IMG/VR virus record: IMGVR_UViG_3300047476_000806
Strand: one strand, 5' to 3'
Length of the DNA: 64,000 nucleotides
Source: a virus
Taxonomy: Duplodnaviria; Heunggongvirae; Uroviricota; Caudoviricetes
The notes below the pieces were generated by a model. That model searched no databases and was not told the DNA's origin. It saw only the letters and a list, made by a program, of their open reading frames with translations. Shown one piece after another: positions 44,332 to 62,741 of the stretch. Made by a program: the position numbers and the translations under genes. Position 1 is the stretch's first letter; each line of letters starts with the position of its first letter.

Positions 44332-45090
44332 TTATACAATAACTATAGATACGCCATCACTGTTTGAGATAACTTCTTGTTTTTTATGCCAAGGAAAGTC
44401 GTCATTATAAACATTCTTCATGATTTTATTACCTTTTTCGAAGAAAGATTTCTGAACAGAACCCTCATTACCACCTAATCTATAGTTAACAGTATGTTGA
44501 TTTGTACAAGTAAAGTTTGGAAAGTATTGTTTGATAGCACCGAAGAATTTTCTATCGGCACCCCATTGACCATACCAAGCATGTCCTATTTGAATTGCTA
44601 CATCTTTTCTTACAGCAAAACATGAAGTGTCTATATGATAAACATTCTCATCAAAGAACGTAGGCCATTTACCAAGTGATTCACAGTTATCTAAACAAAC
44701 GAATTCACCATCTTCATCATATATGTTTCTAAGAGAAAACACCCATTGATTTGTAGAATTCTCTAGCGTGTCAACAATAGTTTGAACATGTGTTGGTTCA
44801 ATCCAGTTATCTTCGTCAAGATATACAATCACATCAGCATTTACTAAGAACGAACAAGCGGCATATACTCGATGACCATACCAACCTTTACCAACATTCT
44901 CTTCTAGAGCAATTAGTTTTGTTTTTGTATATTCATCTTTATCAGTAACTTCTTGAATGCTATCAAAGTATTGCATACCATCAGCAAAGATATAATGAAC
45001 AATATCAGTATATGTTTGATTGTTTACGCTCGCAACACATTTTTCTAGATGTTTGCTACCAATAGAAGGAGTGACTACCGCTACTTTCAT
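44332..45090 (-). CDS. family-2 glycosyltransferase (GT-A fold)
   Basis: MKVAVVTPSIG at the N-terminus. The DxD-type motif is VIVYLDEDNW. Confidence 0.55.
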   Translation of the reverse strand: MKVAVVTPSIGSKHLEKCVASVNNQTYTDIVHYIFADGMQYFDSIQEVTDKDEYTKTKLIALEENVGKGWYGHRVYAACSFLVNADVIVYLDEDNWIEPTHVQTIVDTLENSTNQWVFSLRNIYDEDGEFVCLDNCESLGKWPTFFDENVYHIDTSCFAVRKDVAIQIGHAWYGQWGADRKFFGAIKQYFPNFTCTNQHTVNYRLGGNEGSVQKSFFEKGNKIMKNVYNDDFPWHKKQEVISNSDGVSIVIV

Positions 45091-45851
45091 TCTTTTCTCT
45101 CAATATCACTTTCAACGCATTCTTCACCGTATTGAATTTCAATAATTCTACATGGTTCATCAAAAGGATTAATTAGTTGATGCCATTGTTCTTTTGCTAC
45201 AAAATGAGAATCGTGTTTATCTAATCTCACTGTTGGTAACTTATATTCACCACTAAGTTGCCCTGATACTAATGATTCACCTTCACTGACTAACCAATAC
45301 TCTGAACGTTTATTATGCTTTTGCATCGATAATTTCTGACCAGGATTAATAGTCAACTCTTTAACTTTAACGCCAGGTGCTTCATGAAGTACTCGATAGT
45401 AACCCCATGGCCTGATAGTTTTTGGTGCTTTCCATTCTTCAAGAATCCATGATGATGAATTCATCTTGTTATCACCACCGATACCAAACTTGAATATTAG
45501 ATTATCATCTTTAACATCCATTTCAGGAATATTAGCTGAAGTTCTATCGCCACCATTTGCAAAGATGATTTGATTTGTTGGAAATAGTTTTCTGACTTGT
45601 GTAATAGCATCTTTTGCTGAACCATCAGAATCATCAAACTCAACAACACCCATGACATTTTTTAAACTAGAGACAATCTTTTTTCGCTCAGTATAAGGCA
45701 TAAAAAAAGCACCCTTCTTGCGAATAAGCCATGCATCGGAGTTTACTCCAACCATAACTCTTCCCAATTCGGATGCTTCTTTAATATATTCAAGATGTCC
45801 GGAATGGATTGGGTCAAATCCACCCGTTACAATAACAATTGAATCACTCAT
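45087..45851 (-). CDS. sugar-phosphate cytidylyl/nucleotidyltransferase fused to a cupin-type isomerase domain
   Basis: N-terminal VIVTGGFDPIHSGH is the (H/T)xGH nucleotidyltransferase motif. The C-terminal cupin resembles PMI type II (RPWGYYRVL...INPGQKLSMQKH). Confidence 0.5.
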   Translation of the reverse strand: MSDSIVIVTGGFDPIHSGHLEYIKEASELGRVMVGVNSDAWLIRKKGAFFMPYTERKKIVSSLKNVMGVVEFDDSDGSAKDAITQVRKLFPTNQIIFANGGDRTSANIPEMDVKDDNLIFKFGIGGDNKMNSSSWILEEWKAPKTIRPWGYYRVLHEAPGVKVKELTINPGQKLSMQKHNKRSEYWLVSEGESLVSGQLSGEYKLPTVRLDKHDSHFVAKEQWHQLINPFDEPCRIIEIQYGEECVESDIERKE

Positions 45852-48799: not shown

Positions 48800-48807
48800 C
48801 ATAAATA
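48800..48807 (+). promoter_or_regulatory. late-promoter-like motif CATAAATA upstream of the plus-strand island
   Basis: acATAAATAag. One mismatch to TATAAATA. About 35 nt before the 48842 ATG. Confidence 0.3.
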
Positions 48808-48841: not shown

Positions 48842-49120
48842 ATGGAACAATTCTTTAAATTAGTCGCAGACGTTGGATTTCCTATAGCGGCCGCATGTGG
48901 TGCTGGATACTTTGTATTCTTAACACTTAAGTTTATTCTTGAAGGTGTTACAGGTGGTGTTAAAAGTATGGCAGGAATTATTATTGCACTTGATAAACGA
49001 GTAGCAACTATGAACCACGACGTACTACGTATCGATACTAAAGTAAGTCATGCATTAGGTATTCCACCTGATTTAGATAGAATATCACGAGCAGAACAAT
49101 CTGACGCTAGACGAGACTAA
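48842..49120 (+). CDS. membrane-anchored small protein, paralog 1 (N-terminal TM)
   Basis: VGFPIAAACGAGYFVFLTL. Paralogous to the next ORF (GFPIVAAGGLGYFVYYV). Confidence 0.45.
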   Translation: MEQFFKLVADVGFPIAAACGAGYFVFLTLKFILEGVTGGVKSMAGIIIALDKRVATMNHDVLRIDTKVSHALGIPPDLDRISRAEQSDARRD

Positions 49121-49121
49121 T

Positions 49122-49379
49122 ATGGATATAGTAGAATTAATTAATAAATACGGGTTCCCAATTGTTGCCGCTGGTGGTCTAGGTTACTTTGTTTACTACG
49201 TTTGGAAATGGGTAACTGAAGAAATTGAACCAGTTATTGGAGATTCTAAAAAAGTTTTGGTTGATTTGATTGACCGTATCAGAATGCTTGATAATGATTT
49301 AATCAGATTAACACAGAAAGTTAATACATTCTTAGCCATTGAAGATGCTAAGAAAAGGGATAGGAATAATAAGCAATAG
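49122..49379 (+). CDS. membrane-anchored small protein, paralog 2
   Basis: Tandem paralog with an N-terminal TM helix and a C-terminal helical region. Confidence 0.45.
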   Translation: MDIVELINKYGFPIVAAGGLGYFVYYVWKWVTEEIEPVIGDSKKVLVDLIDRIRMLDNDLIRLTQKVNTFLAIEDAKKRDRNNKQ

Positions 49380-49511
49380 AATCTTATCAAGGGGTAACAC
49401 CGAGATTCTACAAGTTGTCAAGTAGTTTGTCAAGAGAAATTTAAAAATATTGTAAATAATTAGTAACATCATGGTTTAGTTGATTGATTTGAATTACGGA
49501 ACTGAGCCAAA

Positions 49512-49952
49512 ATGAAAATATTAATATTTGCTATATGTCTATTACTATGTGGTAGTGCATATGCTACCGAATTAGTGCACGAGTTTTTTTCACCAGCCTT
49601 TTCAGGTAATGGTTATTCAACTCATATATTAACCATTGAGCAAATTGAGTCTCAGCGTAAACAAAAAATTAAAGATGAACAGAAAGCGGCTGAGACTAAA
49701 GCTGAATTAGCCGCTAAACAAACAAATCTTGCTAAGTTTTTAGTGAATGTTGAGTCTAGAATATATGCTCAATTATCTAAGCAACTTGCAGATGAAATGT
49801 TTGCCGAAGGTGGTGCTGATTCCGGTGAAATGAATTTTCAAGGAACTAACATATCATGGTACAAAACAGGAAGTGATGTAACCTTAACTATTCTTGAAGA
49901 TAACGGTAATAGAACCGAAGTTACTGTGCCGATAGCAGGATTCTCATTTTAA
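49512..49952 (+). CDS. csgF: CsgF-like curli assembly component with signal peptide
   Basis: Signal peptide MKILIFAICLLLCGSAYA. N-terminal EFFSPAFSGNGYS compares to E. coli CsgF FQFRNPNFGGNPN. The C-terminal TLTILEDNGNRTEVTVPIAGFSF compares to [21 protein letters not shown]...F. Confidence 0.55.
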   Translation: MKILIFAICLLLCGSAYATELVHEFFSPAFSGNGYSTHILTIEQIESQRKQKIKDEQKAAETKAELAAKQTNLAKFLVNVESRIYAQLSKQLADEMFAEGGADSGEMNFQGTNISWYKTGSDVTLTILEDNGNRTEVTVPIAGFSF

Positions 49953-50731
49953 TGATTCGTTTATTGATACTAATATTCGTTTTGTCAGGATGTGCTAACG
50001 TTCATATGAATGCGGCAAAAGAAGAACCTGTCAAGATAGAAGCTAGAAAAAAGATTGTTGATGCTTTACCTGAATTGGATGGACCACCGATTCCTATCGC
50101 AGTGTATTCGTTCGCAGATAAGACAGGTCAAAAGAAGTCATCAGATAATCTGGCATTGTTTAGTACCGCAGTAACGCAAGGTGCAGAAGTGTTTCTAATC
50201 AAAGCGTTACAAGATAGTAAGAATTGGTTTAAAGTAGTAGAAAGGGTGGGACTTGATAATCTTATTAAAGAAAGACAGTTGATAAGAAATCAAAGAGAAG
50301 TATATGAAGGTAAAGAAGCAAAGCCATTAAAACCAATGATGGTTGCTGGTGTAATGATAGAAGGAGGTATCATTGGATATGATACTAACATCAGGTCAGG
50401 TGGTAATGGTGCTAGATTATTAGGTATTGGTGTTTCACAGCAATATAGAGTAGATGAAATTGTAATCTCTATTAGATTGGTGAATGTCAATTCGGGTGAA
50501 GTAATGTTAACTAACGCAGTATCCAAAACGATTTACAGTACTCAACATAACTTAGGTATCATGAAGTTTGTTGATTCAGGTACTAAGTCGATTGAGTTTG
50601 AAAATGGAGTTGCACTTAATGAACCTACTACATTCGCAGTAAGAGTTGCGATTGAACAAGCGGTTTATGAATTGATAATAGATGGAGAAAAGAAAGGTTA
50701 TTGGAAATTTAAAAAGGAAAAACAGCAATGA
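49952..50731 (+). CDS. csgG: CsgG-like curli secretion channel lipoprotein
   Basis: Lipobox LSGC. LFSTAVTQGAEVFLIKALQDSKNWF, EGGIIGYDTNIRSGGNGARLLGIG and RLVNVNSGEV match E. coli CsgG (NFSTAVPQSATAMLVTALKDSRWF, EGSIIGYESNVKSGGVGARYFGIG, RVVNVSTGEI). Confidence 0.75.
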   Translation: MIRLLILIFVLSGCANVHMNAAKEEPVKIEARKKIVDALPELDGPPIPIAVYSFADKTGQKKSSDNLALFSTAVTQGAEVFLIKALQDSKNWFKVVERVGLDNLIKERQLIRNQREVYEGKEAKPLKPMMVAGVMIEGGIIGYDTNIRSGGNGARLLGIGVSQQYRVDEIVISIRLVNVNSGEVMLTNAVSKTIYSTQHNLGIMKFVDSGTKSIEFENGVALNEPTTFAVRVAIEQAVYELIIDGEKKGYWKFKKEKQQ

Positions 50732-51315
50732 AAAAAATAGCATTAATCTTTATGATGATAATGCTTAGTAATGTATATGCCGCAGAAATTTATATTGAAC
50801 AGTCAGGAAGTAGTTCTACTGTCAATATAAATCAAGAAGGTATAGGTAATATTGTAGGTGATTCACTGAATCCGCTTTATATTGGCGGTGGTTCGAATAA
50901 CGTTGATATCGACCAAATCGGTGATAATAACAACCTTCAAGGTGTTGTAAATGGTGCAGGAACAGCAACCACAGTAACAACTAATGGTTCAGGTAATATT
51001 CAAATTATTAATTGTGGTACAACAACATCAGCAGGATGTTCATCATCAGTAATCAAACAAGTAGTTACTGGAAGTGATAACACTATAACTCAAGATTTAG
51101 GTACTGGTGCTAATCATAACAGTGAGATTACGATTACTGGAAGTGATAACGCAGTGACTCATACTAGCACAAATGCTGGTGCAAGTACTGTAGATATTTC
51201 AGTGAGTGGTAATCAAAATACTGTGGGAGTAACACAAAGTGGACTTACAGCGAAAACTGTATCAGTTAGTTCTACTGGTAATAGCAATAATATTACTATC
51301 AACCAGTCAGAATAG
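50728..51315 (+). CDS. secreted curlin-repeat (CsgA/CsgB-like) protein
   Basis: Signal peptide MKKIALIFMMIMLSNVYA. Repeated S/T/N/Q/G-rich units are of the form (S/G)xNxxx(I/V)xQxGxxN, for example DIDQIGDNNNLQG, ITQDLGTGANHNSEI and VGVTQSGLTAKT. AAGGAAAAAC RBS. Confidence 0.5.
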   Translation: MKKIALIFMMIMLSNVYAAEIYIEQSGSSSTVNINQEGIGNIVGDSLNPLYIGGGSNNVDIDQIGDNNNLQGVVNGAGTATTVTTNGSGNIQIINCGTTTSAGCSSSVIKQVVTGSDNTITQDLGTGANHNSEITITGSDNAVTHTSTNAGASTVDISVSGNQNTVGVTQSGLTAKTVSVSSTGNSNNITINQSE

Positions 51316-52336
51316 TTATTCAGCAATCGGTAAAGTTTCAGAACAAACAGGTCCTACCGAGATTGTCCGACAAAGCAAATCAATAGAGAGTAAATTAAAC
51401 TCTTCTATTGAGATGCTTGACACTGTGGTAACCGCAAAGTCTAAAGTGTTACTAACGTTCGAAGATGATACAACAGTTAAGATTACTGAACAATCTAAAT
51501 TAATTATCGATGATTTTGTTTATGATAATAAAAAAGGTGCTGGTAAATTAGCATTAAAAGTTGCTTTGGGTACGGCAAGATATGCTTCAGGACAGATAGC
51601 TAAGAGTAACCCACAATCAGTTAACATACAGACACCAACAGCAACAATTGCAGTTCGTGGTACTGATTTTAGTATGACTGTAGATGAATTAGGTAGAAGT
51701 TTGGTGATGCTTTTACCTTCTTGTGATAAGAAAGCGTGTGTAACAGGTGCTATTGAAGTGAGTACCGATGCAGGTTCTGTTTTTATGAATCAAGCATATC
51801 AAACAACTGTAGTTGCTACACGAGACCAAGCACCAACTAAGCCTGTGATTGTTAATATAGACCAGGCAAATATTAATAACTTGTTGATTGTTGCACCTCC
51901 AAAACAAGTAGAAGAACAAAAGATACAGCAAGATAATAAAACTGTATTAGATTATAACTTTTTAGATAGAGATTTATTAGAGTATAACAAACTAGATGAA
52001 GATGAATTAAAAAGGTTTAGTTTACTTGATATGAATTTTTTATCTTTTGATTTGTTACCAAATATTTTGGATGAATCGAATAGGTCATTAGCGGCAAGTC
52101 AAGAAGCAATGCTAGAAGAAAAAACTTTGCTTCCTGGATATAATGAAGCATCAGGATTGAAATATGGTATAGATGAAAATGGTAAGTTGATTTTAACAAA
52201 GATTGCTAATCATACTGCACAAGTGACAGTTGATAAAGAGCATGATGTGATTGTTAGTATTACGCAGGATAGTTCACCACTGATACAAAAAGTGAATGGT
52301 GGTGGAACAACAACAATTAACATTAATCAGAAATAG
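51239..52336 (+). CDS. FecR-domain periplasmic protein
   Basis: TPTATIAVRGTDFSM is the FecR signature. The N-terminal 25 codons (KLYQLVLLVIAIILLSTSQNSYSA) form a Sec signal peptide encoded in an alternative frame over the last 77 nt of the curlin-like gene. Confidence 0.45.
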   Translation: MDLQRKLYQLVLLVIAIILLSTSQNSYSAIGKVSEQTGPTEIVRQSKSIESKLNSSIEMLDTVVTAKSKVLLTFEDDTTVKITEQSKLIIDDFVYDNKKGAGKLALKVALGTARYASGQIAKSNPQSVNIQTPTATIAVRGTDFSMTVDELGRSLVMLLPSCDKKACVTGAIEVSTDAGSVFMNQAYQTTVVATRDQAPTKPVIVNIDQANINNLLIVAPPKQVEEQKIQQDNKTVLDYNFLDRDLLEYNKLDEDELKRFSLLDMNFLSFDLLPNILDESNRSLAASQEAMLEEKTLLPGYNEASGLKYGIDENGKLILTKIANHTAQVTVDKEHDVIVSITQDSSPLIQKVNGGGTTTININQK

Positions 52337-52344
52337 GAGTAAAA

Positions 52345-54339
52345 ATGCTAAAGCAATCTTTATTAACAGTGGCATTAATCGGTGTGTTTGGTACAGTTCA
52401 ATCAGCACCTTTAGTATTAGAAGGCGATTACATCAAAATTGGTGTAAACGAAGTAGGTACATTAGGTTCTAATGGTAATACATCACCTGGTGTTCTATAT
52501 GATAACACCGGCACAGGAACATTCAACACAGCATATGACTACTTAACTCCTGGTTCACCATTCGAAGGATGGACTGTTCAATATAATGGAACAGAATCAG
52601 TGATGAATAACAATGCTCAATGGTCATCACCACAAATGACAGGTACACTAACAAGTTACAATGGTGTTGCTTACAATGGTACAACATTCGACAATCGAGC
52701 AGTTTGGGAAGGTACTTCAGTAAACTTTGATTTGTTACATGATGTTCGCTTCAATGATAATCAAAAGTTTGTGGATATTACATCAATATTGACAGCTAAA
52801 GTTGCAATGACTGATTTATACTTCGCAAGATATACAGACCCTGACGCACGTGCGGCCGCTGGTGACAGTTCTGCTACAACAAACACATTAGGATTCTCAC
52901 CTATTCCAGTAACTCAAGTTGTATTTTCTGAAGCTTTAGTATCTAGATATGCACTTGGTTTATACTCAGCGGCACCTAACGTAGGCGCAGGTGTTAGTTC
53001 AGGTTGGTCAACAGACGCAACAACATATTACACCGGTGCAAATGATGGTAATGGTGACTATACGATAGGTTTAGGCTTCCACGTACCAACAGTAGCAATT
53101 GGTGACATCGTTACCTTTAATTATGCATACATCTTTGGACCTAGCACATTATCTGCTGGTTCTACTGCTGTTACTTCAGGTGCTGGTGGTGGCGTTCCTG
53201 GTGAAGTTCCTGGTTGTGTGTCTGATTGTACATTACCACCTGACCCTAGTTCAACTCCTACATTAGTATCAACAGACGTTGAGTTATCTAGTGTATCTGT
53301 AGTTCATAGAGGTGATACTGATACTGCAATCGAATACGACTATGCAACATCAAAAGGTTCTAAAGTATTAGCTGTAAATCAAACTACAACTACAACTTTA
53401 ACAACTCCAGTAACAACTACAGTAGCTTCTACTTCAACTACAGTTGAAACATATAGTGATTCATCAGTAGTTCGTACAGTTGGTGCAACTACAACGACAT
53501 CAAGTACAGTTAATGACGTAACAGAATCAGAATATGATACTGCATTCTCAACAAGAATTGACCAATTTGATAGATTGTCAGCATCAAATGAAATGTACAA
53601 TAGACAGTTAAATAGTAATATCATGGATAGATTTGTAGCAGGTCAAACTGGTGCTTATTTAAACATCGATAGTCAAACTAGCAATACACAAGATACCTAT
53701 AAACAAAAAGCAAATCGTTTTGGTGTTGGAGTAGACAAGTCTATTACTGATAATTTGAATGTAGGTTTTCAATACAATAACATTTCATCAAGATTATCTG
53801 GAACTAATGCAGGTGGACGTTTAGATAAAAATCATGTTGGTGCATATGCTGTATACACTAAAAACAATTGGGTGTTTGTAAACGATATTGGTTTCTCATA
53901 TAACGATTACAAAACAAATCACAGTTTACCTGAATTGAATGCAACAAATAGTTCAAGTGCTAATGGATATGACTTATGGGTTAGCGGTAGAGCATATACT
54001 CCATCACTAAAAGGATTCAGACCATATGCTGGTATTAGAATTGAAAACAACAACTTAGATTCAGCTAAAGATAAAGGTACTGAATTGACTGCTGTTAGTT
54101 ATAGTAAAATTAATTCAACAAATACAACAGGTGAATATGGTATCAGATACGATTATCAATACAAAAAAGTTAACTTGTTAGCTGAAGTTGGTTCTAATTC
54201 TGATAATATCAAACTATACAAAGCAGGTATTAACTTTATTCCAAATGAAAAAGTTATTGGTGGTGTATCATTTACGCAACAAGAATATGATAATATCAAG
54301 AATGATGTGATTTCAGCTAATATAAAAGTTAATTTCTAA
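52345..54339 (+). CDS. autotransporter-like outer-membrane protein (signal peptide, passenger, Thr-rich linker, C-terminal beta-barrel)
   Basis: Signal peptide MLKQSLLTVALIGVFGTVQSAP. T-rich linker TTTTTLTTPVTTTVASTSTTVE. The C-terminal ~270 aa have alternating hydrophobics and end ...NIKVNF, with an OMP-type terminal Phe. AGGAG RBS. Confidence 0.5.
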   Translation: MLKQSLLTVALIGVFGTVQSAPLVLEGDYIKIGVNEVGTLGSNGNTSPGVLYDNTGTGTFNTAYDYLTPGSPFEGWTVQYNGTESVMNNNAQWSSPQMTGTLTSYNGVAYNGTTFDNRAVWEGTSVNFDLLHDVRFNDNQKFVDITSILTAKVAMTDLYFARYTDPDARAAAGDSSATTNTLGFSPIPVTQVVFSEALVSRYALGLYSAAPNVGAGVSSGWSTDATTYYTGANDGNGDYTIGLGFHVPTVAIGDIVTFNYAYIFGPSTLSAGSTAVTSGAGGGVPGEVPGCVSDCTLPPDPSSTPTLVSTDVELSSVSVVHRGDTDTAIEYDYATSKGSKVLAVNQTTTTTLTTPVTTTVASTSTTVETYSDSSVVRTVGATTTTSSTVNDVTESEYDTAFSTRIDQFDRLSASNEMYNRQLNSNIMDRFVAGQTGAYLNIDSQTSNTQDTYKQKANRFGVGVDKSITDNLNVGFQYNNISSRLSGTNAGGRLDKNHVGAYAVYTKNNWVFVNDIGFSYNDYKTNHSLPELNATNSSSANGYDLWVSGRAYTPSLKGFRPYAGIRIENNNLDSAKDKGTELTAVSYSKINSTNTTGEYGIRYDYQYKKVNLLAEVGSNSDNIKLYKAGINFIPNEKVIGGVSFTQQEYDNIKNDVISANIKVNF

Positions 54340-54363
54340 TTTTTAACGACTAAATAAGTAATC

Positions 54364-56382
54364 ATGAAAAAATTACTTAATCCATGGTTAGCGTTAATAA
54401 CGTTAACTTTATTAGTAGTAATCAGATTGGCAGACTTCAGTTTTATCGAGTCTGTCAGATTGCGATATTTTGACACATTAATTACAAGTGAATCTGTAAA
54501 GGTTTCTGAACAAATTCACGTTGTAAATATAGATGATAAGTCCATAGAAAAGTATGGACAATTTCCGTTTCCTAGAGGTGATTATGCGAGCATTATTGAT
54601 TCTTTGTATGACCGTGGCGCTGGGCTGGTTGTTTTTAACTTGTTTCTACCTGATAGTGATAGGTTTGGACAAGATGGTAGACTTACTTCTACCCTTAACA
54701 AACACCCTGTAGTATTCCCACAAGCTGGTTCTACTGATAAACAAAAAGCTATACCATTTAGACCTGGTGTTTCTGAGATTGGAACACCAGCTTCTAATTT
54801 TGCAGTATCTTATCCAAGTATTTTAACTAACATAAAACAAATTAATGAAAATGCCGCTGGCATTGGAGTAGTGAATGTATTACCTGAAATTGATGGTGTT
54901 GTCCGTCGTGTACCTATGGTCGTCTCAAGCAATGGCGTATTGTTTCCCTCAATCACACTTGAAACTTTGCGAGTTGCTTCCGGAGACCCAAGTTTCCAAG
55001 TCAAGTCAACAGATTACGGTATCGAGGCCGTCAGAATACCTAGCTTCAGAAAAGTTGAAACTGACTCTTTCGGACGAGTTTGGATTGACTGGTCCACTAA
55101 GCCTACCGAACACAGTCTTGTTGATTTACCCAAGTCCTTTGATGGGACAATCGTCATTGTTGGACTCAGTGCTAAAGGACTCAACAATCCTGTCGCAACA
55201 GCAAGAGGAGAGGTCTATCCGCATTATTTACAGGCAAGCGTTCTAGATACACTTGTATCAGGTAAAAATATTAGTAGACCTGACTGGTCAAATGGTGTAG
55301 AATTATTATTGACAGTTATTCTGTCTGTGATATCTATATTATTAACTAGGTGGAAATATGGCTTTATTGCTTTTCTTGCTATCATTGCTGGTGTTGTGGG
55401 TGCTTCTAAAGGTGCTTTTGTTTACTATTCGTATCTTCTTGATTGTATTTTTCCTGTGTTTTGCTTGGGTATTGTTTATTTACATGTGTATACAGTTAAG
55501 TTCGTAAGCGAATTAAATCAAAAACTTCAAATCAAAAAACAATTTGGCACATATCTGTCGCCAGCACTTGTTGAAAAACTTCAAAAGAATCCTGAATTAT
55601 TAAGACTTGGTGGTGAGTCTCGTGAACTATCTATTATGTTCACCGATGTTAGAGGCTTCACTACAATCTCAGAACACTATGGTAAAGATGTTCAAGGATT
55701 AACTCAAATTATGAATCGCTACATGACAGCGATGACCGCAAAGATTATTGAGAACAACGGAACACTGGATAAATACATTGGTGATGCTCAGATGGCTTTC
55801 TGGAATGCACCACTTGATGAGCCTAACCACGCTAAATTGGCATTGAAAACGGCTCTAGAAATGATGGAGAGTTTAGATGCGTTTAATAAAGAGATTCAAA
55901 AAGAGGGTATTCCGGCGTTTGGTATGGGACTCGGGATTAATACTGGCACTGTTGTCGTTGGTAATATGGGTTCTAGCCAACGCTTTGATTACACCTGCTT
56001 AGGTGATGCTGTTAACTTAGCGTCACGTTTAGAAGGACAATCGAAACCTTATGGTGTTAAAATCATATTAGGTTCGTTAACTGCTGAACAAGTTAAAGAT
56101 GAATATCCAGTTGTTGAGTTAGATTGTATTGCTGTTAAAGGTAAAACAGAAGGTGTTAAGATTTATACTCCTTGTGTTTATCAAGAAGAGCATTATAAGT
56201 TACACAAAAAATATCTAAAATCATACTATGATGGTATTTGGGATTCAGCAATTTTCTTTGCTAAAGATTTAGAGATTAATGGTCCTACAGAATTACGTCA
56301 ATATTATCATAACATGATAGAGAGAATGCTTGAAGGTAAACCTGAAGATTGGGATGGTACGTATAGAGCAACTAGCAAGTAA
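54364..56382 (+). CDS. CHASE2 sensor-domain class III adenylate/guanylate cyclase
   Basis: N-terminal TM plus the CHASE2 pattern (IHVVNIDDKSIEKYGQFPFPRGDYASIIDSL...GAGLVVFNLFLPD), then several TM helices, then the cyclase core (SIMFTDVRGFTTISE, GDAVNLASRLE). Confidence 0.75.
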   Translation: MKKLLNPWLALITLTLLVVIRLADFSFIESVRLRYFDTLITSESVKVSEQIHVVNIDDKSIEKYGQFPFPRGDYASIIDSLYDRGAGLVVFNLFLPDSDRFGQDGRLTSTLNKHPVVFPQAGSTDKQKAIPFRPGVSEIGTPASNFAVSYPSILTNIKQINENAAGIGVVNVLPEIDGVVRRVPMVVSSNGVLFPSITLETLRVASGDPSFQVKSTDYGIEAVRIPSFRKVETDSFGRVWIDWSTKPTEHSLVDLPKSFDGTIVIVGLSAKGLNNPVATARGEVYPHYLQASVLDTLVSGKNISRPDWSNGVELLLTVILSVISILLTRWKYGFIAFLAIIAGVVGASKGAFVYYSYLLDCIFPVFCLGIVYLHVYTVKFVSELNQKLQIKKQFGTYLSPALVEKLQKNPELLRLGGESRELSIMFTDVRGFTTISEHYGKDVQGLTQIMNRYMTAMTAKIIENNGTLDKYIGDAQMAFWNAPLDEPNHAKLALKTALEMMESLDAFNKEIQKEGIPAFGMGLGINTGTVVVGNMGSSQRFDYTCLGDAVNLASRLEGQSKPYGVKIILGSLTAEQVKDEYPVVELDCIAVKGKTEGVKIYTPCVYQEEHYKLHKKYLKSYYDGIWDSAIFFAKDLEINGPTELRQYYHNMIERMLEGKPEDWDGTYRATSK

Positions 56383-56905: not shown

Positions 56906-56984
56906 TGGTGGGCCCCGTGGGATTCGAACCCACTGTCTATCGGTTATGAGCCGATTGCTTATACCAGATTTAAGCTTGAGGCCC
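56906..56984 (-). tRNA. tRNA-Ile2(k2CAU) or tRNA-Met, anticodon CAT
   Basis: Hand-folded cloverleaf. Acceptor GGGCCTC/GGGGCCC with C4-G69 and C5-G68. Anticodon loop CTCATAA. T-loop TTCGAAT. CCA encoded. Confidence 0.7.
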
Positions 56985-56989
56985 GAATA

Positions 56990-57063
56990 TGGAGCGTCCT
57001 GCGGGAATCGAACCCGCCTCTTCAGCTTGGAAGGCTGTAATAATACCACTATACCAAGAACGC
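56990..57063 (-). tRNA. tRNA-Gly(TCC)
   Basis: Cloverleaf. Anticodon loop CTTCCAA. T arm GCGGG/TTCGATT/CCCGC. CCA encoded. Confidence 0.7.
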
Positions 57064-57340
57064 ATAACGGATGAAAAAGCAAGTAAAAGACGGGACAATG
57101 TACATTAGAAGGGCTATGCCACTAAACTCTAAGACAATCAACAAACCACAATAATCAAAACCTGCATATTAGTTAGAAACAAAACACAAAGTCGTCGTTT
57201 ATAATACTAACACACGCAGAACGATTTCAGGTCGTTTTGGATTTGGCGTCCATACTGGAGAGAAATTAATCTCATCTTAGTCAATTCTCATCTCTTTTTC
57301 ATGCCGAGTAGATTTTTTGAAGAAAACCTACCAGAAAAAC

Positions 57341-57907
57341 TTAAAGAATACCTGCTTTAGTTAGTGTTTCCACTACGTTATCAGGTAACTCAATCTCAGT
57401 CTTAATATTCAATTCAAGAATCTTATCTTGAATTTTTTGCTTCTCTTTTTTGAATGTAGAAACATTCTTTTTAGCAATAGAAATATTACCTTCAGTACAT
57501 ACGGTAGTAGTTACTTCATCGGCTCTACCATATACACTTCTAGTAGTATCTGTATTGTTTTTAATCTTATCAAGCTTACCTTCGACAATATTAATAGCTG
57601 TCGCTGGTGCTGAAGTTGCTATGTTTTGATGTAGATGAATAGTCTTTTCAATCAATGCAACATCACTTAACAAATCATTAATTTGATTTGCGTTTGCTTT
57701 ACCAACTAGTTTTCTAATCGTATACAAACTAACATACAAATCATTATTTACCTCAAAAGCTGTTAAATAATCTTTGTTTGCTTTATCAAACTTTTCAGAT
57801 ACATTTTCAAACTCATTGAATGTAACCATATTGTTTAGCTGATTATTCTTAATAGTATCAAGAATAGTTTGTTGTAATGCATTTGCTTTTCTAAGCGTAA
57901 TTTTCAT
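57341..57907 (-). CDS. hypothetical protein (188 aa)
   Basis: ORF inside the tRNA island. Confidence 0.4.
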   Translation of the reverse strand: MKITLRKANALQQTILDTIKNNQLNNMVTFNEFENVSEKFDKANKDYLTAFEVNNDLYVSLYTIRKLVGKANANQINDLLSDVALIEKTIHLHQNIATSAPATAINIVEGKLDKIKNNTDTTRSVYGRADEVTTTVCTEGNISIAKKNVSTFKKEKQKIQDKILELNIKTEIELPDNVVETLTKAGIL

Positions 57908-57915
57908 AATAACTC

Positions 57916-58101
57916 CTAATGTGCTAAAATCTTAAAGCACTTAAATTTAATAACTTTTGTTGTACCTGAAGCCATCTTCTTAGCTTCTTCACCTGCGGCA
58001 ACACATTCTTGTTGTGAAAAGAAACCTGGTACATTAGTTAATGCCATCGAATCAGTATCACTCATCATACCTGCATGTGCAAACAATAATAAAACCCACA
58101 T
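57916..58101 (-). CDS. hypothetical small protein with N-terminal hydrophobic segment (61 aa)
   Basis: MWVLLLFAHAGMMS. Confidence 0.3.
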   Translation of the reverse strand: MWVLLLFAHAGMMSDTDSMALTNVPGFFSQQECVAAGEEAKKMASGTTKVIKFKCFKILAH

Positions 58102-58123
58102 AATAAATCTCCAATAATAAGAA

Positions 58124-58199
58124 TGGTGTCCCCGGAGAGAATCGAACTCCCGTATAATGCTTTAGAAGAGCACTGCGTCATCCACTACGCTACGAGGAC
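58124..58199 (-). tRNA. tRNA-Arg(TCT)
   Basis: Canonical 76-nt cloverleaf. Anticodon loop CTTCTAA. A73. CCA encoded. Confidence 0.8.
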
Positions 58200-58234
58200 A
58201 TTTGAAAGCATATTACTATACTTTACTTTAAATG

Positions 58235-58795
58235 TCAAATATATCTACTATGTTTAGGTAGTTTAGACTTTAAGTATTCCATTTGGTCAGCAACTACGTT
58301 TCTATTCTGTAGAATAAAGTGTTCCCATCTACAAGGTCTGTAAGGTAAAAACAACAATAACATATTAGCTTCTTCAGGTGTTCTATCTGCTTTCTTAGAG
58401 TTACAGTGCTTACATGAAGACACTGAGTTTTCCCAAGCATTAGAACCACCACGACTTCTTGGATGTACGTGGTCTCTAGTCAAATCTTTTGATTCAAAGA
58501 ATAGTCCACAGTAAGCACATAAGTTATGGTCTCGTCTGAATAACAAAAAGTTACCGTGAGCATTCACAGTTTCTTTAGTATGCAATCTTCGAGTTTCACC
58601 TCTTACTGAGATGATAGACTTGATACTGATTTGAGATTGTAAACCATTCTTTTGATAGCCGCCATGAAACACTTGAAACTCAGTACCTAAGTCCCAAACA
58701 ACTTTATCTGAGGCGTAGTAATGCACCGCTTCTTCGGGCATCAGCCACTTGAAGGGATTACCTGCAATATCTAGTCCTAGTATACGTGCTTCCAT
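58235..58795 (-). CDS. HNH endonuclease
   Basis: CAYCG...LTRDHVHPRSRGGSNAWENSVSSCKHCNSKK is an HNH motif with Zn-binding cysteines. Confidence 0.65.
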   Translation of the reverse strand: MEARILGLDIAGNPFKWLMPEEAVHYYASDKVVWDLGTEFQVFHGGYQKNGLQSQISIKSIISVRGETRRLHTKETVNAHGNFLLFRRDHNLCAYCGLFFESKDLTRDHVHPRSRGGSNAWENSVSSCKHCNSKKADRTPEEANMLLLFLPYRPCRWEHFILQNRNVVADQMEYLKSKLPKHSRYI

Positions 58796-58845
58796 GATAG
58801 TCTCAAAAAAATAATTTAGATGTTATATGTATATATCTTTAAAAT

Positions 58846-58922
58846 TGGTGCGGAAGGAGGGAGTCGAACCCTCAAAACTCGGATTTTAAGTCCGATACGT
58901 ATGCCAATTCCGTCACATCCGC
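58846..58922 (-). tRNA. tRNA with anticodon TAA (Leu UUR decoding) but class-I architecture (5-nt variable region)
   Basis: Perfect 5-bp anticodon stem TCGGA/TCCGA with loop CTTAAAA. T arm GAGGG/TTCGACT/CCCTC. 3-bp D stem. A73. One T-T mismatch at 6:67. CCA encoded. 77 nt. Confidence 0.55.
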
Positions 58923-59001
58923 TTATTAAATTTAGAACGTTGCTGTTTCTGAACCCTAGTAGTAACAATAAAGTTAAAAAATTACAGCAACGCTCTAAAA
59001 C

Positions 59002-59078
59002 TGGTAGAAGTAGTGAGATTCGAACTCACGATAGGTTGCGTATGAAGCAACTGCATTAAGCCACTATGCTACACTTCT
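59002..59078 (-). tRNA. tRNA-Met(CAT) (elongator-type)
   Basis: Cloverleaf. Anticodon stem GTTGC/GCAAC, loop TTCATAC. T-loop TTCGAAT. CCA encoded. Confidence 0.7.
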
Positions 59079-59269
59079 GTTAAAACTTTTTGCTTCATAA
59101 ATTGGCAGTATGCTTTATAATCTTCATGCATTGCCTTTTGTATTAACTCATCAGTGCTTTTATAAAAAATATGTCCAACTAGTTTTAATCTAATAGACTC
59201 ATATAAACAGTCCATCTTCAATTCTTCAGATGGAGGATATTCTTTATAAAACTCTTCATAAGTTAACAT
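59069..59269 (-). CDS. hypothetical protein (66 aa)
   Basis: The real start is ATG at 59269 with an AAGGA RBS. The ORF-track start at 59290 runs into tRNA-His. Confidence 0.3.
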   Translation of the reverse strand: MLTYEEFYKEYPPSEELKMDCLYESIRLKLVGHIFYKSTDELIQKAMHEDYKAYCQFMKQKVLTEV

Positions 59270-59279
59270 AATAATCCTT

Positions 59280-59355
59280 TGGGGTGTCATACGAGATTTG
59301 AACTCGTGCTATAACATTCACAGTGTTAGGTGCTAACCACTACACTAATGACACC
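59280..59355 (-). tRNA. tRNA-His(GTG)
   Basis: Anticodon loop CTGTGAA. Discriminator C73. Encoded extra 5' G(-1). T-loop TTCAAAT. Confidence 0.8.
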
Positions 59356-59361
59356 ATTAAA

Positions 59362-59435
59362 TGGCTCCGGTGGAGGGAGTCGAACCCCCGCCAAGAGGTT
59401 TGGAGTCTCTTGTGCTACCGTAACACTTCACCGGA
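59362..59435 (-). tRNA. tRNA-Trp(CCA)
   Basis: Anticodon loop CTCCAAA, identical to E. coli tRNA-Trp. G73. Perfect acceptor TCCGGTG/CACCGGA. Confidence 0.75.
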
Positions 59436-59442
59436 ATAAAAC

Positions 59443-59519
59443 TGGAGGATAGAGTGAGATTCGAACTCACGAACCACTGCTTTGCAGGCAGGTACCTTAG
59501 ACCACTCGGTCATCTATCC
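59443..59519 (-). tRNA. tRNA-Cys(GCA)
   Basis: Anticodon loop CTGCAAA. Discriminator U73. T arm GTGAG/TTCGAAT/CTCAC. Confidence 0.75.
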
Positions 59520-59741
59520 TTAACAACAACCTGCATCTGGAAAAATAAATACTTTTTCTTCAGCAGAATCATCAGTATTATATTCAATAAATGTGTTAAT
59601 TTCTTCTTGTGCAAATGTAACACCTTCATTCTCTGCTAAAAACGTAGCATCAGCTAGATTATCAGCAACTACAACTAACCCGCCATCTGAATGGTAATTG
59701 TCAGTTAGATTAGCAATCCTTGTCCAAATAAAAACTTTCAT
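59520..59741 (-). CDS. hypothetical acidic protein (73 aa)
   Basis: ORF whose stop abuts the tRNA-Cys 5' end. Confidence 0.35.
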   Translation of the reverse strand: MKVFIWTRIANLTDNYHSDGGLVVVADNLADATFLAENEGVTFAQEEINTFIEYNTDDSAEEKVFIFPDAGCC

Positions 59742-59744
59742 AAT

Positions 59745-60161
59745 CTACTCCAATGGAAATAATTCTTTAAATTTTGCAGTCATTACATCAATTAAAACTG
59801 GATGACGATAATCGTAGTCATCTTCAATTTCTAAATTAATTACTTGTTTAAAATCAAAATCAAATGTCCAATTATCCATATCATTAAACATTTTGTTTTG
59901 CATTGTATTGATATGTAATTGTTGAATACTATCCATCACTAGAATAACATCAGCCCAAATAATCAAAGCTTCAGTCACAGGAATAATCGCATATTCTGCA
60001 CTAGTTCCTGCACATCTAGTATTGAAGTTCCATGGTTCTGAACTAAGAATATGTGCCGCTGTAGGACTTCTTAGACATCCTGCTGAACATACAGTCAATA
60101 CTTTCTTATGCTTTCCTTGATAAGCATTGAATATCACCCCAAGTTGGTTTCTTTTTAGCAT
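59745..60161 (-). CDS. low-molecular-weight protein tyrosine phosphatase / ArsC-fold protein
   Basis: P-loop VLTVCSAGCLRSPTAAHIL has the form C-x5-R-S. The start is uncertain, as the ORF overlaps the upstream ORF. Confidence 0.45.
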   Translation of the reverse strand: MLKRNQLGVIFNAYQGKHKKVLTVCSAGCLRSPTAAHILSSEPWNFNTRCAGTSAEYAIIPVTEALIIWADVILVMDSIQQLHINTMQNKMFNDMDNWTFDFDFKQVINLEIEDDYDYRHPVLIDVMTAKFKELFPLE

Positions 60162-60330
60162 TCTTACTTTCCTTAATAAAAATCTTTAGTGTTCTACCTT
60201 CATCTTGAAGACTAAACTCTAATGATTCTACATTCCAATTAGTATAACTACGACCTTTACCATCAATCACTTCAACTCTAGTGACATCATAATAAGGCTC
60301 TTCAAATCTATTAATATGCGGATTGGTCAT
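60106..60330 (-). CDS. hypothetical protein (74 aa)
   Basis: ORF. Confidence 0.3.
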   Translation of the reverse strand: MTNPHINRFEEPYYDVTRVEVIDGKGRSYTNWNVESLEFSLQDEGRTLKIFIKESKNAKKKPTWGDIQCLSRKA

Positions 60331-60883
60331 GGAATGTAAATCCTTTATTCTTAAATTTTTGTAATCGCCACTCTTTAATAAATTTGATATCAGTATTATA
60401 GATTAGCTTCTTATTCATACATGCGTCATACTGTTCTCGTGAGATAAACAACTTATCTTGCATCAACAAATAGTAAGGTTTGCAATGAACAAAGTCAAAA
60501 TGATTTCGAACATCATTAGGATGTCCTGCAAACGTGAAGATGAATGAGTCATCAGTCTTCATGGTAATCGCATTAGCGGTAATCATTTTACCATTATTAT
60601 CTGCGTGTTCCATGTAATTGATATTGACTTCTTTAATCTCATCATCATAATTCTTTTCTATGTGTTCTTTAAATGTTACGGCAGAATCTTGGTCATAGAA
60701 ATAAAAGTCCCAATCTTTAGGTATTTCGCCCCTTAATAGAGAACCGATTGCACCACCTGAAAGATACACGGCATCATTTTCATACAGCATTTTCCACCAA
60801 TCAAAATTCTTCAATGCTTCCATATGGAATTTAATGGTGTCTTTTACATCTTTAATTTTATTCTTTTCGTTTTCAGTAAACAT
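60311..60883 (-). CDS. Pol-beta-superfamily nucleotidyltransferase-like protein (190 aa)
   Basis: YLSGGAIGSLLRGEIPKDWDFYF matches the hG[GS]-x9-DxD nucleotidyltransferase motif. Confidence 0.4.
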   Translation of the reverse strand: MFTENEKNKIKDVKDTIKFHMEALKNFDWWKMLYENDAVYLSGGAIGSLLRGEIPKDWDFYFYDQDSAVTFKEHIEKNYDDEIKEVNINYMEHADNNGKMITANAITMKTDDSFIFTFAGHPNDVRNHFDFVHCKPYYLLMQDKLFISREQYDACMNKKLIYNTDIKFIKEWRLQKFKNKGFTFHDQSAY

Positions 60884-60945
60884 ACAATCACCTAATCATA
60901 ATATAAAATAATCATACATCAAAATTAATTTAATGTAAAGCATTA

Positions 60946-61021
60946 TTTGGTAGGACCCCTCGGAATCGAACCGAGTCCTCAGCGTCTTCAGCGCCACGTA
61001 CTGACCACATATACGTGAGTC
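60946..61021 (-). tRNA. tRNA-Phe(GAA)
   Basis: Cloverleaf. Anticodon loop CTGAAGA, with U33 and anticodon GAA. T arm CTCGG/TTCGATT/CCGAG. A73. Position 37 is G, which is atypical. Confidence 0.6.
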
Positions 61022-61023
61022 CT

Positions 61024-61099
61024 ATTGGTACTCGAAGAGAGAATCGAACTCTCATTTGACGATTATCGGTCGTCTGTTCTAAACCGTTGAACTATTCGA
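61024..61099 (-). tRNA. tRNA-Ile(GAT)
   Basis: Perfect D and anticodon stems. Anticodon loop CCGATAA (C33). T arm GAGAG/TTCGATT/CTCTC. Confidence 0.65.
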
Positions 61100-61102
61100 G
61101 CA

Positions 61103-61603
61103 TTAATAAACAACATTATAGCAACAATTAAGTACTACTCTCTCAATATTGCTATTCTTAACTTGTTCTACTTTATGATAATACCAAGGCATCATATTAA
61201 CAAAAATACATGTTCCATATTTTGGATATACTGTGAACACTTCTTCTTGAGCATTCTTGAAACTGATAGAACCACCAGTTTCTTCGTTCATATCATTAAA
61301 GTATACTAAAGCAAACAGATTCCAACCTTCTCTTAAATCGTTGTGCCAATCACAACTAGTTGGTTCTGTACCTTTCCATAATTCTGTTTTTCCAACATCT
61401 ACAGATTGAAACGACTTGTTTAATATTGTAACAAGCTTTTCATTAATAGATTTTATAGCGTTATCTAAATTGTCATCATCTTTAGGTTCATATACATTGT
61501 TTAAATGTTCGTCTTTCCATATGATTAATTTTAAATCAACATCCGATAACAACTCAGAAATGTCGATTTGATGATAACCTTTTTCTATTAAATCATTTAT
61601 CAT
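61103..61603 (-). CDS. 2OG-Fe(II) oxygenase-superfamily-like protein (166 aa)
   Basis: HxD (CDWHND) and a distal His (YYHKV) are spaced as in the double-stranded beta-helix oxygenases. Weak assignment. Confidence 0.35.
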   Translation of the reverse strand: MINDLIEKGYHQIDISELLSDVDLKLIIWKDEHLNNVYEPKDDDNLDNAIKSINEKLVTILNKSFQSVDVGKTELWKGTEPTSCDWHNDLREGWNLFALVYFNDMNEETGGSISFKNAQEEVFTVYPKYGTCIFVNMMPWYYHKVEQVKNSNIERVVLNCCYNVVY

Positions 61604-61616
61604 AATCTTCCTTTAT

Positions 61617-61692
61617 TGGACCCCTCTGCAAGAATCGAACTTGCATCATAACGTTCGTAGCGTTGTATTCTAATCCATTGAACTAAAAGGGG
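61617..61692 (-). tRNA. tRNA-Arg(ACG)
   Basis: Anticodon loop CTACGAA. T arm GCAAG/TTCGATT/CTTGC. CCA encoded. Confidence 0.7.
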
Positions 61693-61698
61693 TAAAAC

Positions 61699-61773
61699 TG
61701 GCGACTCGTGGGGGAATCGAACCCCCGTATCCTACTAGACAGGCAGGCATAATAACCATTATATCAACGAGTC
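61699..61773 (-). tRNA. tRNA-Asp(GTC)
   Basis: Anticodon loop CTGTCTA. G73. T arm GGGGG/TTCGATT/CCCCC. Perfect acceptor. Confidence 0.7.
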
Positions 61774-61823
61774 AAAAAACTTTCAAGCAATTGTTTTCAG
61801 CAATCGATGAAAGCCGTGTTACA

Positions 61824-61898
61824 TGGTGCCCCGTGACGGATTCGAACCGCCATAACCTGATTACAAAACAGGCATAATAGCCTTTATATGAACAGGGC
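61824..61898 (-). tRNA. tRNA-Thr(TGT)
   Basis: Anticodon loop TTTGTAA. T-loop TTCGAAT. CCA encoded. Confidence 0.7.
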
Positions 61899-61903
61899 AA
61901 AAC

Positions 61904-61979
61904 TGGTACTCAGTGAAGGAATCGAACCTTCCTAAGCTATCTTGTAAGGATAGTCTCTAGCCAATCGAGTCAACTGAGT
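61904..61979 (-). tRNA. tRNA-Val(TAC)
   Basis: Perfect anticodon stem CTATC/GATAG. Loop CTTACAA. U8. T arm GAAGG/TTCGATT/CCTTC. Confidence 0.7.
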
Positions 61980-61984
61980 ATAAT

Positions 61985-62059
61985 TGGTGGAATAGGCGAG
62001 ACTCGAACTCGCAACAGTCTGCTTGCAAAGCAGGTGAACTCCCATTGTTCTACTACCCC
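61985..62059 (-). tRNA. tRNA-Ala(TGC)
   Basis: Anticodon loop TTTGCAA. The acceptor stem carries the G3-U70 Ala identity pair. T-loop TTCGAGT. Confidence 0.75.
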
Positions 62060-62065
62060 AAAACT

Positions 62066-62140
62066 TGGTCTCTCAGGTAGGACTCGAACCTACATCGTCT
62101 ACGCCCCAAACGTAGTGACCAACCTCTGGCCCACTGAGAG
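62066..62140 (-). tRNA. tRNA-Pro(TGG)
   Basis: Perfect anticodon stem CTACG/CGTAG. Loop TTTGGGG with G37. Perfect acceptor CTCTCAG/CTGAGAG. Confidence 0.75.
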
Positions 62141-62147
62141 TTAAAAC

Positions 62148-62224
62148 TGGCTGTGTACCTAGGATTCGAACCTAGCGCATCTTGATTAACAGTCAAGCCT
62201 TCTCACCTAGAGAAGTCGTACACA
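62148..62224 (-). tRNA. tRNA-Asn(GTT)
   Basis: Perfect D stem CTTC/GAAG. Anticodon stem CTTGA/TCAAG. Loop CTGTTAA. G73. Confidence 0.75.
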
Positions 62225-62232
62225 ATAAAACT

Positions 62233-62309
62233 TGGTACCCTTAGAAGGATTCGAACCTTCAAATTTCTGTTTCTAAGACAGACTCCTTTACCAATTTGGA
62301 CATAAGGGC
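62233..62309 (-). tRNA. tRNA with anticodon TAG (Leu CUN decoding) but class-I architecture (5-nt variable region)
   Basis: Perfect anticodon stem TCTGT/ACAGA with loop CTTAGAA. T arm GAAGG/TTCGAAT/CCTTC. 3-bp D stem. A73. 77 nt. CCA encoded. Confidence 0.55.
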
Positions 62310-62317
62310 ATTAAACT

Positions 62318-62407
62318 TGGCGGAAGTTTAGGGAATCGAACCCTCGACGATTACTCGTTCCTACTGTTTAGCAAACAGTGCTAGTTTCCCTGACTAGATA
62401 AACTTCC
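62318..62407 (-). tRNA. tRNA-Ser(GCT), class II
   Basis: 90 nt. Anticodon stem ACTGT/ACAGT. Loop TTGCTAA. 17-nt variable arm. G73. Perfect acceptor GGAAGTT/AACTTCC. Confidence 0.75.
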
Positions 62408-62477
62408 ATATTGAGCGGTTTGCCGTACTCTCCTAACCTCGAATACATTATGTTACGGCTTTCTCTCAAACTAAAAC
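62408..62477 (-). pseudogene. tRNA-sized degenerate slot (possible tRNA remnant or small structured RNA)
   Basis: 70 nt between regularly spaced tRNAs. It has acceptor-like ends TTGAGAG/CGCTCAA (6 of 7 bp) and an internal GCCGTA...TACGGC stem. It lacks a canonical T-loop. Confidence 0.25.
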
Positions 62478-62568
62478 TGGCGGAGGGATGGCGGAATCGA
62501 ACCCCTGGCAATCTCTTGCTCGCTCTGCTTTCAAAACAGACGCACTATCCCCGAGTGCATAACCCTCC
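62478..62568 (-). tRNA. tRNA-Ser(TGA), class II (T stem imperfect)
   Basis: 91 nt. Anticodon stem TCTGT/GCAGA. Loop TTTGAAA. Long variable arm. G73. The T stem has a G-G mismatch and there is one acceptor mismatch. Confidence 0.55.
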
Positions 62569-62733: not shown

Positions 62734-62741
62734 ATAAATCT

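Follow-up and report, generated by a model that had tools for sequence, protein, structure and literature searches.

A probable pelagiphage-type curli (type VIII) secretion module in a T4-like marine phage genome

The DNA analysed here, IMG/VR record IMGVR_UViG_3300047476_000806 (Caudoviricetes), is a stretch of 64,000 nucleotides (nt), hereafter called the window. It holds a cassette of eight plus-strand genes (48842-56382; Table 1) encoding two small transmembrane proteins (TM1 and TM2), homologues of the curli channel proteins CsgF and CsgG, a curlin-like repeat protein, a FecR-domain protein, a predicted autotransporter and a CHASE2 sensor fused to an adenylate cyclase, in the order TM-TM-F-G-C1-R-AT-AC. 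A preliminary description had singled out three of these genes (49512-51315) as a curli-type secretion module. Its CsgF, CsgG and curlin part is borne out by intact open reading frames (ORFs) of 146, 259 and 195 amino acids (aa) at this position, while its extent was drawn too short, covering three of the eight genes. No frameshift interrupts the three ORFs, and adjacent ones share 1 and 4 nt, which is the layout of a translationally coupled operon.

Table 1. Genes and late-promoter-like motifs of the cassette (positions in the window)
Feature	Coordinates	Strand	Remarks
Late-promoter-like motif CATAAATA	48800..48807	+	41 nt upstream of the first cassette gene (TM1)
Small membrane protein TM1, 92 aa	48842..49120	+	one N-terminal TM helix, conserved C-terminal helix
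Small membrane protein TM2, 85 aa, TM1 paralogue	49122..49379	+	phrog_18771
CsgF homologue, 146 aa	49512..49952	+	Pfam PF10614; signal peptide
CsgG homologue, 259 aa, putative outer-membrane lipoprotein	49952..50731	+	Pfam PF03783; lipobox LSGC
Curlin-like secreted repeat protein, 195 aa, candidate fibre subunit (CsgA/B-like)	50728..51315	+	Curlin_rpt PF07012
FecR-domain extracytoplasmic protein, 365 aa	51239..52336	+	Pfam FecR; signal peptide or membrane anchor
Predicted type Va autotransporter, 664 aa	52345..54339	+	AlphaFold2 model, Foldseek barrel match
Late-promoter-like motif CTAAATA	54350..54356	+	14 nt upstream of the cyclase start codon
CHASE2 sensor fused to class III adenylate cyclase, 672 aa	54364..56382	+	Pfam CHASE2 + Guanylate_cyc

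The two channel proteins are recognised by their family models. CsgF scores 63.6 bits on its Pfam model (cut-off 25.8), with residues 6-140 spanning positions 5-132 of 132, and matches phrog_35372 at E 1e-47. It has a signal peptide (…SAYA/TE), and in the N-terminal, CsgG-binding segment the motif F-x-x-P-x-F-x-G-x-G is invariant across six phage orthologues. A profile of the family aligns weakly with E. coli CsgF (6l7a_J; E 0.21), and over the N-terminal 49 residues only. The designed repeat protein 7ong, the sole PDB match of CsgF by phmmer, was discarded as spurious. CsgG scores 177.1 bits on its Pfam model (cut-off 20.8; residues 47-252), and the E. coli CsgG structures 3x2r and 6l7a align with it over residues 3-256 (E 5e-47). 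It is 47% identical to its counterpart in Methylophilales phage Melnitz and 45.5% identical to that of Pelagibacter phage HTVC008M. Because its NCBIfam score of 175.7 bits lies under the strict equivalog cut-off of 505, we class it as a diverged CsgG rather than as an equivalog of the E. coli type. At the N-terminus stands MIRLLILIFVLSGC-A, with the lipobox LSGC already noticed in the preliminary description followed by Ala; G13 and C14 are invariant in the six phage orthologues, and the Ala at position +2 points to sorting to the outer membrane. The constriction loop also aligns (LALFSTAVTQ), with a Ser and a Leu in place of Tyr51 and Asn55 of E. coli CsgG, and with Phe56 retained.

The 195-aa protein encoded directly downstream is the candidate substrate. 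A signal peptide is followed by a Curlin_rpt match of 25.7 bits (cut-off 20.7; one partial repeat, residues 22-38), and most of its homologues also carry a precomputed Pfam match to Curlin_rpt. The mature sequence shows periodicities of 11 and 23 residues (z 3.5 each), and T, S, G and N each make up about 14% of it. Across 39 homologues the Gln, Gly and Asn positions recur approximately every 11 residues. Its orthologues in HTVC008M and Melnitz match at E 7e-19 and 1e-18, respectively, and a protein identical to it is encoded on a 91.9-kb JGI metagenome contig. Its AlphaFold2 model is confident (predicted local distance difference test, pLDDT, 85.6; predicted template-modelling score 0.81) and consists of 14 strands whose strand-turn-strand repeats are stacked in a CsgA-like two-sheet beta-solenoid. 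We conclude that the protein probably adopts a curlin-type fold and represents a divergent curlin family member and an amyloid candidate, as the preliminary description had supposed from its repeats. The window adds independent structural support for the third gene of the curli set being CsgA-like.

The next gene, fecR, overlaps the curlin-like gene and starts at GTG 51239, with GGAG 9-12 nt upstream. Its product matches Pfam FecR (42.1 bits, cut-off 24) and phrog_37870 (E 6e-93), and the alignment of its orthologues contains two invariant Cys. The predicted periplasmic FecR domain stands alone after a signal peptide, and the cassette encodes neither a sigma factor nor a transporter beside it; in the absence of these and of an anti-sigma domain, we therefore call it a FecR-domain protein and not a FecR regulator. 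The last gene of the cassette encodes a protein with CHASE2 (128.6 bits) and Guanylate_cyc (74 bits) domains, which also matches phrog_35576 at E 4e-282. Its best PDB sequence matches are the adenylate cyclases CyaC (1wc1) and CyaB (3r5g). It retains the motifs FTDVRGFT, KYIGDA and VNLASRLE, which we take to hold the catalytic and ATP-specifying residues of class III cyclases. In the 'BiofilmReg' operon of Burkholderia, a periplasmic FecR-domain protein is paired with a CHASE2 sensor and regulates biofilm formation (PMC5192318). Because of this precedent we read the phage pair as one sensing unit, an interpretation that the analogy supports.

TM1 and TM2, at the start of the cassette, are paralogous single-pass membrane proteins of 85-92 aa. 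Both match phrog_18771 (E 5e-35 for TM1 and E 6e-33 for TM2) and, weakly, holin PHROGs (E 5e-3 and E 3e-4, respectively); a Pfam search with TM1 found no family at a significant E-value. The TM helix of these proteins contains the conserved GFPI(A/V)AA-G-GYF, followed by LDnRVktMNhD in one paralogue and by LIDRIRMLDNDLIRL in the other. The position of the pair varies among phages: the two genes lie on the strand of the module when upstream of it, and on the other strand when they follow the cyclase gene.

The 664-aa protein encoded between fecR and the cyclase gene is by its predicted structure a type Va autotransporter. In the AlphaFold2 model (pLDDT 83.8) a signal peptide is followed by a conserved beta-sandwich passenger (about residues 23-265), a Thr-rich hairpin stalk and a linker helix; after the helix at 407-421 come 12 strands forming a barrel, and the chain ends in KVNF, hence with an aromatic residue (Phe). 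In Foldseek the model matches the NalP translocator (1uyo/1uyn; template-modelling score 0.80-0.83) as well as EstA, Hbp, EspP and BrkA. The Pfam Autotransporter model matches 24 of 41 family members, the window protein itself not being one of them, and the passenger gave no Pfam or PDB sequence match. Metagenomes hold over 1,500 relatives of the protein, and many of these carry the Pfam Autotransporter beta-domain. We excluded that it is the second curlin of HTVC008M and Melnitz, with which BLASTP found no similarity.

In other phage modules the autotransporter gene is found between csgF and csgG, after fecR or after the second curlin gene. It is not exclusive to such modules, since it lies inside one in 14 of 26 well-flanked viral loci, and it is a frequent but optional passenger of the curli module. 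Nor is it linked to curli in cellular genomes: no curli genes neighbour it in Phenylobacterium, Sphingomonas, Marinobacterium or Azonexus. The cellular homologues (Marinobacterium, Azonexus, Phenylobacterium and sphingomonads) have a passenger about 50% identical and score 141-164 bits on Pfam Autotransporter. The sole locus with a cellular label that carries curli genes beside the autotransporter is an 8.9-kb contig (CAYVBV010000079.1, our L133) of a freshwater Polynucleobacter metagenome-assembled genome, where genes for CsgF, CsgG, curlin, FecR and a second curlin, and the beginning of the autotransporter gene, are arranged as in phages. This is probably phage DNA that binning assigned to that genome by mistake; if so, the curli module occurs in freshwater phages too.

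At least 586 IMG/VR stretches encode a CsgG relative. Counts for complete modules were made in 43 viral loci with enough flanking DNA, and these reveal a constant core and several variable parts. CsgF, CsgG and FecR are each present in 43/43, the curlin-like protein and the cyclase each in 41/43, and the curlin-like gene always directly follows csgG. The TM pair is found in 34/43, a second curlin in 19/43 and the autotransporter in 10/43, about a quarter. In ten of the 43 complete modules the cyclase gene is separated from the autotransporter or second curlin gene by genes for a metallophosphoesterase and a family-4 glycosyltransferase (for instance L003 10037-11903 and L006 10265-12187 in our numbering of loci; likewise L017, L032, L036, L038, L047, L052 and L054), a pair that is absent from the window. 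Moreover, the IMG/VR loci L017, L020, L022, L025, L028 and L036 have curli modules on viral contigs of 286-364 kb; the module therefore also exists in jumbo-sized phages, about twice the size of HTVC008M. With 68-76% identity, L017, L020, L022, L025 and L028 are among the nearest CsgG relatives of the window, and L036 shows 53%. In L006, a JGI contig of 338,665 bp, genes for HSP70, HSP20 and ClpS are placed just upstream of the curli module.

The promoter motifs give an indication of timing. We counted [ACT]TAAATA, the core of the T4-type late promoter, at positions -70 to -4 of start codons in non-redundant viral loci, where random windows give a background of about 3%. The motif precedes TM1 in 46/63 loci (8 in the reverse-complement control), csgF in 52/95 (control 1) and the cyclase gene in 25/61 (control 2), so that the enrichment is strand-specific; it was found before csgG in 0/90 and before fecR in 0/57 loci. 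Within the window the motif also stands before genes for baseplate and tail proteins. Counted over the entire window, TATAAATA and CATAAATA showed no enrichment, and the position-specific test across loci alone is informative. Scans of the window for sigma-70 promoters (47 found, 39.9±6.7 expected from shuffles) and terminators (6 found, 3.8±1.9 expected) yielded no excess over shuffled sequence. As far as the motifs tell, the pattern suggests that the cassette is transcribed late in infection.

The surroundings of the cassette agree with the T4-type setting named in the preliminary description: baseplate wedge, hub, tail-tube-cap and other tail proteins, an RNA ligase and RNase H are encoded around it (PHROGs and Pfam). 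Judged by its proteins, the window belongs to a T4-like marine myophage related to HTVC008M and Melnitz, and the cassette sits in the variable region of this marine T4-like (Kyanoviridae-type) genome. The best deposited relatives of the baseplate protein and of CsgG are Melnitz, HTVC008M and Pelagibacter phage Mosig (40-47% identity). A megablast search with the region in 50,697 phage records gave no DNA-level match to any deposited phage; the relatives are detectable at the protein level alone. About 3 kb upstream of the cassette, the minus strand (44332-45851) encodes a cytidylyltransferase/mannose-6-phosphate isomerase-type fusion and a family-2 glycosyltransferase, i.e. sugar-nucleotide and surface-glycan genes, which fits the published idea that the variable region remodels the host surface. 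Roughly 500 nt past the cyclase gene begins a dense minus-strand array (56906-63550) of 24 tRNA genes found by ARAGORN, with one more by Rfam at 63482-63550. Together these decode all 20 amino acids, and between them lie ORFs, one of which encodes an HNH endonuclease (58235-58795). The number of tRNA genes is presumably far above that of the cultured relatives HTVC008M and Melnitz.

The preliminary description had regarded a curli system in a T4-type phage as unusual, which does not hold, since such modules are already annotated and published. The GenBank annotation of HTVC008M and Melnitz lists, in order, CsgF, CsgG, a curlin-associated repeat protein, a FecR-domain protein, a second curlin-repeat protein and an adenylate cyclase. 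Zaragoza-Solas 2020 (mSystems; PMC7029224) reported a 'curli operon' in pelagimyophages and proposed a role in 'sibling capture'. Buchholz 2022 (Applied and Environmental Microbiology, AEM; PMC9004378) modelled the CsgG-CsgF pore of Melnitz and proposed a role in lysis timing, believing the fibre genes to be absent. Wittmers 2022 (mSystems; PMC9599517) found genes for a curlin subunit, FecR, adenylate cyclase and a 'histidine kinase' in podo- and myo-pelagiphages, detected module transcripts in ocean metatranscriptomes, put the share of the module genes among assembled viral proteins at about 0.1%, and called the module a complete type VIII secretion system (T8SS). The 'histidine kinase' genes are probably of the TM1/TM2 type, for which we obtained no HisKA or HATPase match and which are too short for a kinase. 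The cassette is thus genuine but already known from SAR11 and OM43 phages, of which the window is a divergent further example. Two aspects, the autotransporter in the slot of the second curlin and the late-promoter pattern, are unmentioned in the three module publications (PMC7029224, PMC9004378, PMC9599517) and appear new relative to those descriptions.

We consider it likely that the cassette is a pelagiphage-type T8SS module which, late in infection, uses CsgG-CsgF to export a subunit resembling CsgA and which is accompanied by a FecR/CHASE2-cyclase sensor. The window follows the pelagiphage-type gene order, lacking only the optional second curlin. The analysis establishes the homology and architecture of every part, the secretion signals, the strict co-conservation of the genes and the late-promoter motifs, and from these we infer a possible course for channel assembly in the host, fibre formation and benefit to the phage. 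The eight genes would be expressed during infection, probably late, and CsgF, CsgG, the curlin-like protein, the FecR-domain protein and the autotransporter would cross the inner membrane via the Sec system of the host. CsgG would then form an outer-membrane channel with CsgF as its cap, and the 195-aa subunit might leave through this channel and stack outside the cell as a CsgA-like beta-solenoid fibre. The FecR-domain protein in the periplasm and the CHASE2 adenylate cyclase may act as a linked pair that senses the envelope and produces cyclic AMP, and the autotransporter would place one more protein of phage origin on the cell surface. The phage might profit because cells aggregate ('sibling capture'), because the surface is shielded from other phages, or because the envelope is conditioned as lysis approaches.

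Several observations weigh against this interpretation. As the preliminary description had remarked for CsgE, CsgB and CsgD, the set is smaller than the complete enterobacterial-type system: Pfam and NCBIfam searches of the eight cassette ORFs gave no match to CsgE, CsgC or CsgD, and tblastn with four first-curlin and three second-curlin queries found a single curlin-like gene in the window and hence no second, CsgB-like nucleator gene. Published phage modules likewise lack CsgE and CsgD (PMC9599517). The resemblance of the 195-aa protein to curlin is faint in sequence: its Pfam match is weak and confined to one partial repeat, NCBIfam CsgA gives 22.6 bits against a cut-off of 160, the PDB profile match to 8c50 has a mere E 1.7, and hhalign to E. 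coli CsgA yields 34% probability. Foldseek of the model against PDB found nothing significant, with no match at E below 0.09. The family is furthermore Thr/Ser-rich and has two invariant cysteines (C96 and C104 in the 39 homologues), unlike E. coli CsgA. The 132-nt gap upstream of csgF in the window contains no late motif, and Melnitz-infected cells did not clump (PMC9004378). On the other hand, we looked by HMM, sequence and structure for the findings that the preliminary description had named as speaking against it, namely a lack of similarity to CsgG and CsgF, a repeat fold unrelated to curlin, or a frameshift, and encountered none of them.

The weakness of the curlin match, the want of a significant Foldseek hit, the cysteines and the Thr/Ser-rich composition would all suit a monomeric beta-helical adhesin or shield at the surface or in the periplasm, whose connection to CsgG is one of secretion only or coincidental. 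We hold this to be very unlikely, as the protein and most of its homologues pass the Curlin_rpt gathering score, the Gln/Asn/Gly ladders recur every 11 residues, and the gene always directly follows csgG. That the curlin gene is so strictly conserved together with the pore genes also disfavours models that consider the pore alone. One of these, the proposal made for Melnitz by Buchholz 2022, sees CsgG-CsgF as a repurposed lysis-timing device, a pinholin- or secretin-like gate for which fibres are irrelevant. The late-promoter-like motifs would indeed suit an action shortly before infection ends, the module is accompanied by TM1 and TM2, small single-pass proteins with weak holin matches, there is no CsgE gate, and clumping was not seen in Melnitz cultures (PMC9004378). 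However, the holin matches are marginal, and the proposal assumed that fibre genes are missing, whereas nearly all complete modules encode a curlin-like protein, which in the window is predicted to fold like CsgA. By the Lol sorting rules, moreover, a lipobox followed by Ala would put CsgG in the outer membrane, where a pore cannot depolarise the inner membrane. We therefore regard the lysis-timing device as unlikely. According to another proposal (PMC7029224 and PMC9599517), nutrients or cofactors needed by the phage would be imported or diffuse through CsgG, which might stay open without CsgE, and the FecR domain might hint at iron. This seems to us extremely unlikely, because it leaves the strictly co-conserved CsgF and curlin-like substrate unexplained, and because the FecR-domain protein has no anti-sigma or transport partner, its constant neighbour being a CHASE2 cyclase; FecR domains and CHASE2 sensors are paired in bacterial biofilm operons too.

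If the cassette is a curli export module, the autotransporter might be a working partner of the curli machinery, its passenger anchoring or nucleating the fibre or serving as a second adhesin. A nucleator role is open to it because the window has no CsgB-like second curlin gene. We put this forward tentatively and think it on the whole rather doubtful. If true, together with late-promoter control, it would mean that T4-like marine phages, including some with contigs of more than 280 kb, rebuild the surface of their host through two secretion pathways just before lysis. Phage curli export would give SAR11/OM43-type hosts a surface structure that they do not otherwise encode, and any of the proposed roles (aggregation, blocking of competitor phages, lysis timing) would have an influence on recombination and the flow of carbon in the ocean's most abundant bacteria. 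This broader significance belongs to the published work; the autotransporter and the late-type promoters are leads that narrow when and how the module acts.

Compared with the pelagiphage and methylophage T8SS, known from HTVC008M, Melnitz and uncultivated myo- and podo-pelagiphages, the cassette has the same order of two small proteins, CsgF, CsgG, curlin-repeat protein, FecR and CHASE2 cyclase. The synteny with HTVC008M and Melnitz is gene-for-gene apart from the seventh gene, and the cassette occupies the same variable-region position in a T4-like genome. In those phages the slot after fecR holds a second curlin-repeat gene, whereas in the window it holds the predicted type Va autotransporter. 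The window differs further in its array of 24 tRNA genes and in having viral contigs of 286-364 kb among its nearest CsgG relatives.

With the curli system of E. coli and Salmonella (csgBAC, csgDEFG) the cassette shares a CsgG lipoprotein that aligns from end to end, the conserved N-terminal segment of CsgF, and a secreted Gln/Asn/Gly repeat subunit predicted to form a CsgA-like beta-solenoid. It differs by having no CsgE, CsgC, CsgD or CsgB paralogue, by altered residues in the CsgG constriction loop, and by a Thr/Ser-rich subunit with two cysteines; CsgD control in the bacteria contrasts with putative late-type promoter motifs and a cyclase in the phage. The Burkholderia BiofilmReg operon (PMC5192318) resembles it in placing a secreted FecR-domain protein beside a membrane protein with an extracytoplasmic CHASE2 domain. 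There the output is a histidine kinase, while the phage protein is a class III adenylate cyclase, and the phage pair has no LysM domain and no response regulator. The 664-aa protein, finally, is predicted to share with the classical type Va autotransporters (NalP, EstA, EspP and Hbp) the 12-strand barrel, internal linker helix, terminal Phe and signal peptide. Its passenger is a beta-sandwich of about 245 residues in place of a beta-helix, protease or esterase, and it is encoded by a phage, inside the curli module in about half of the well-flanked viral loci.

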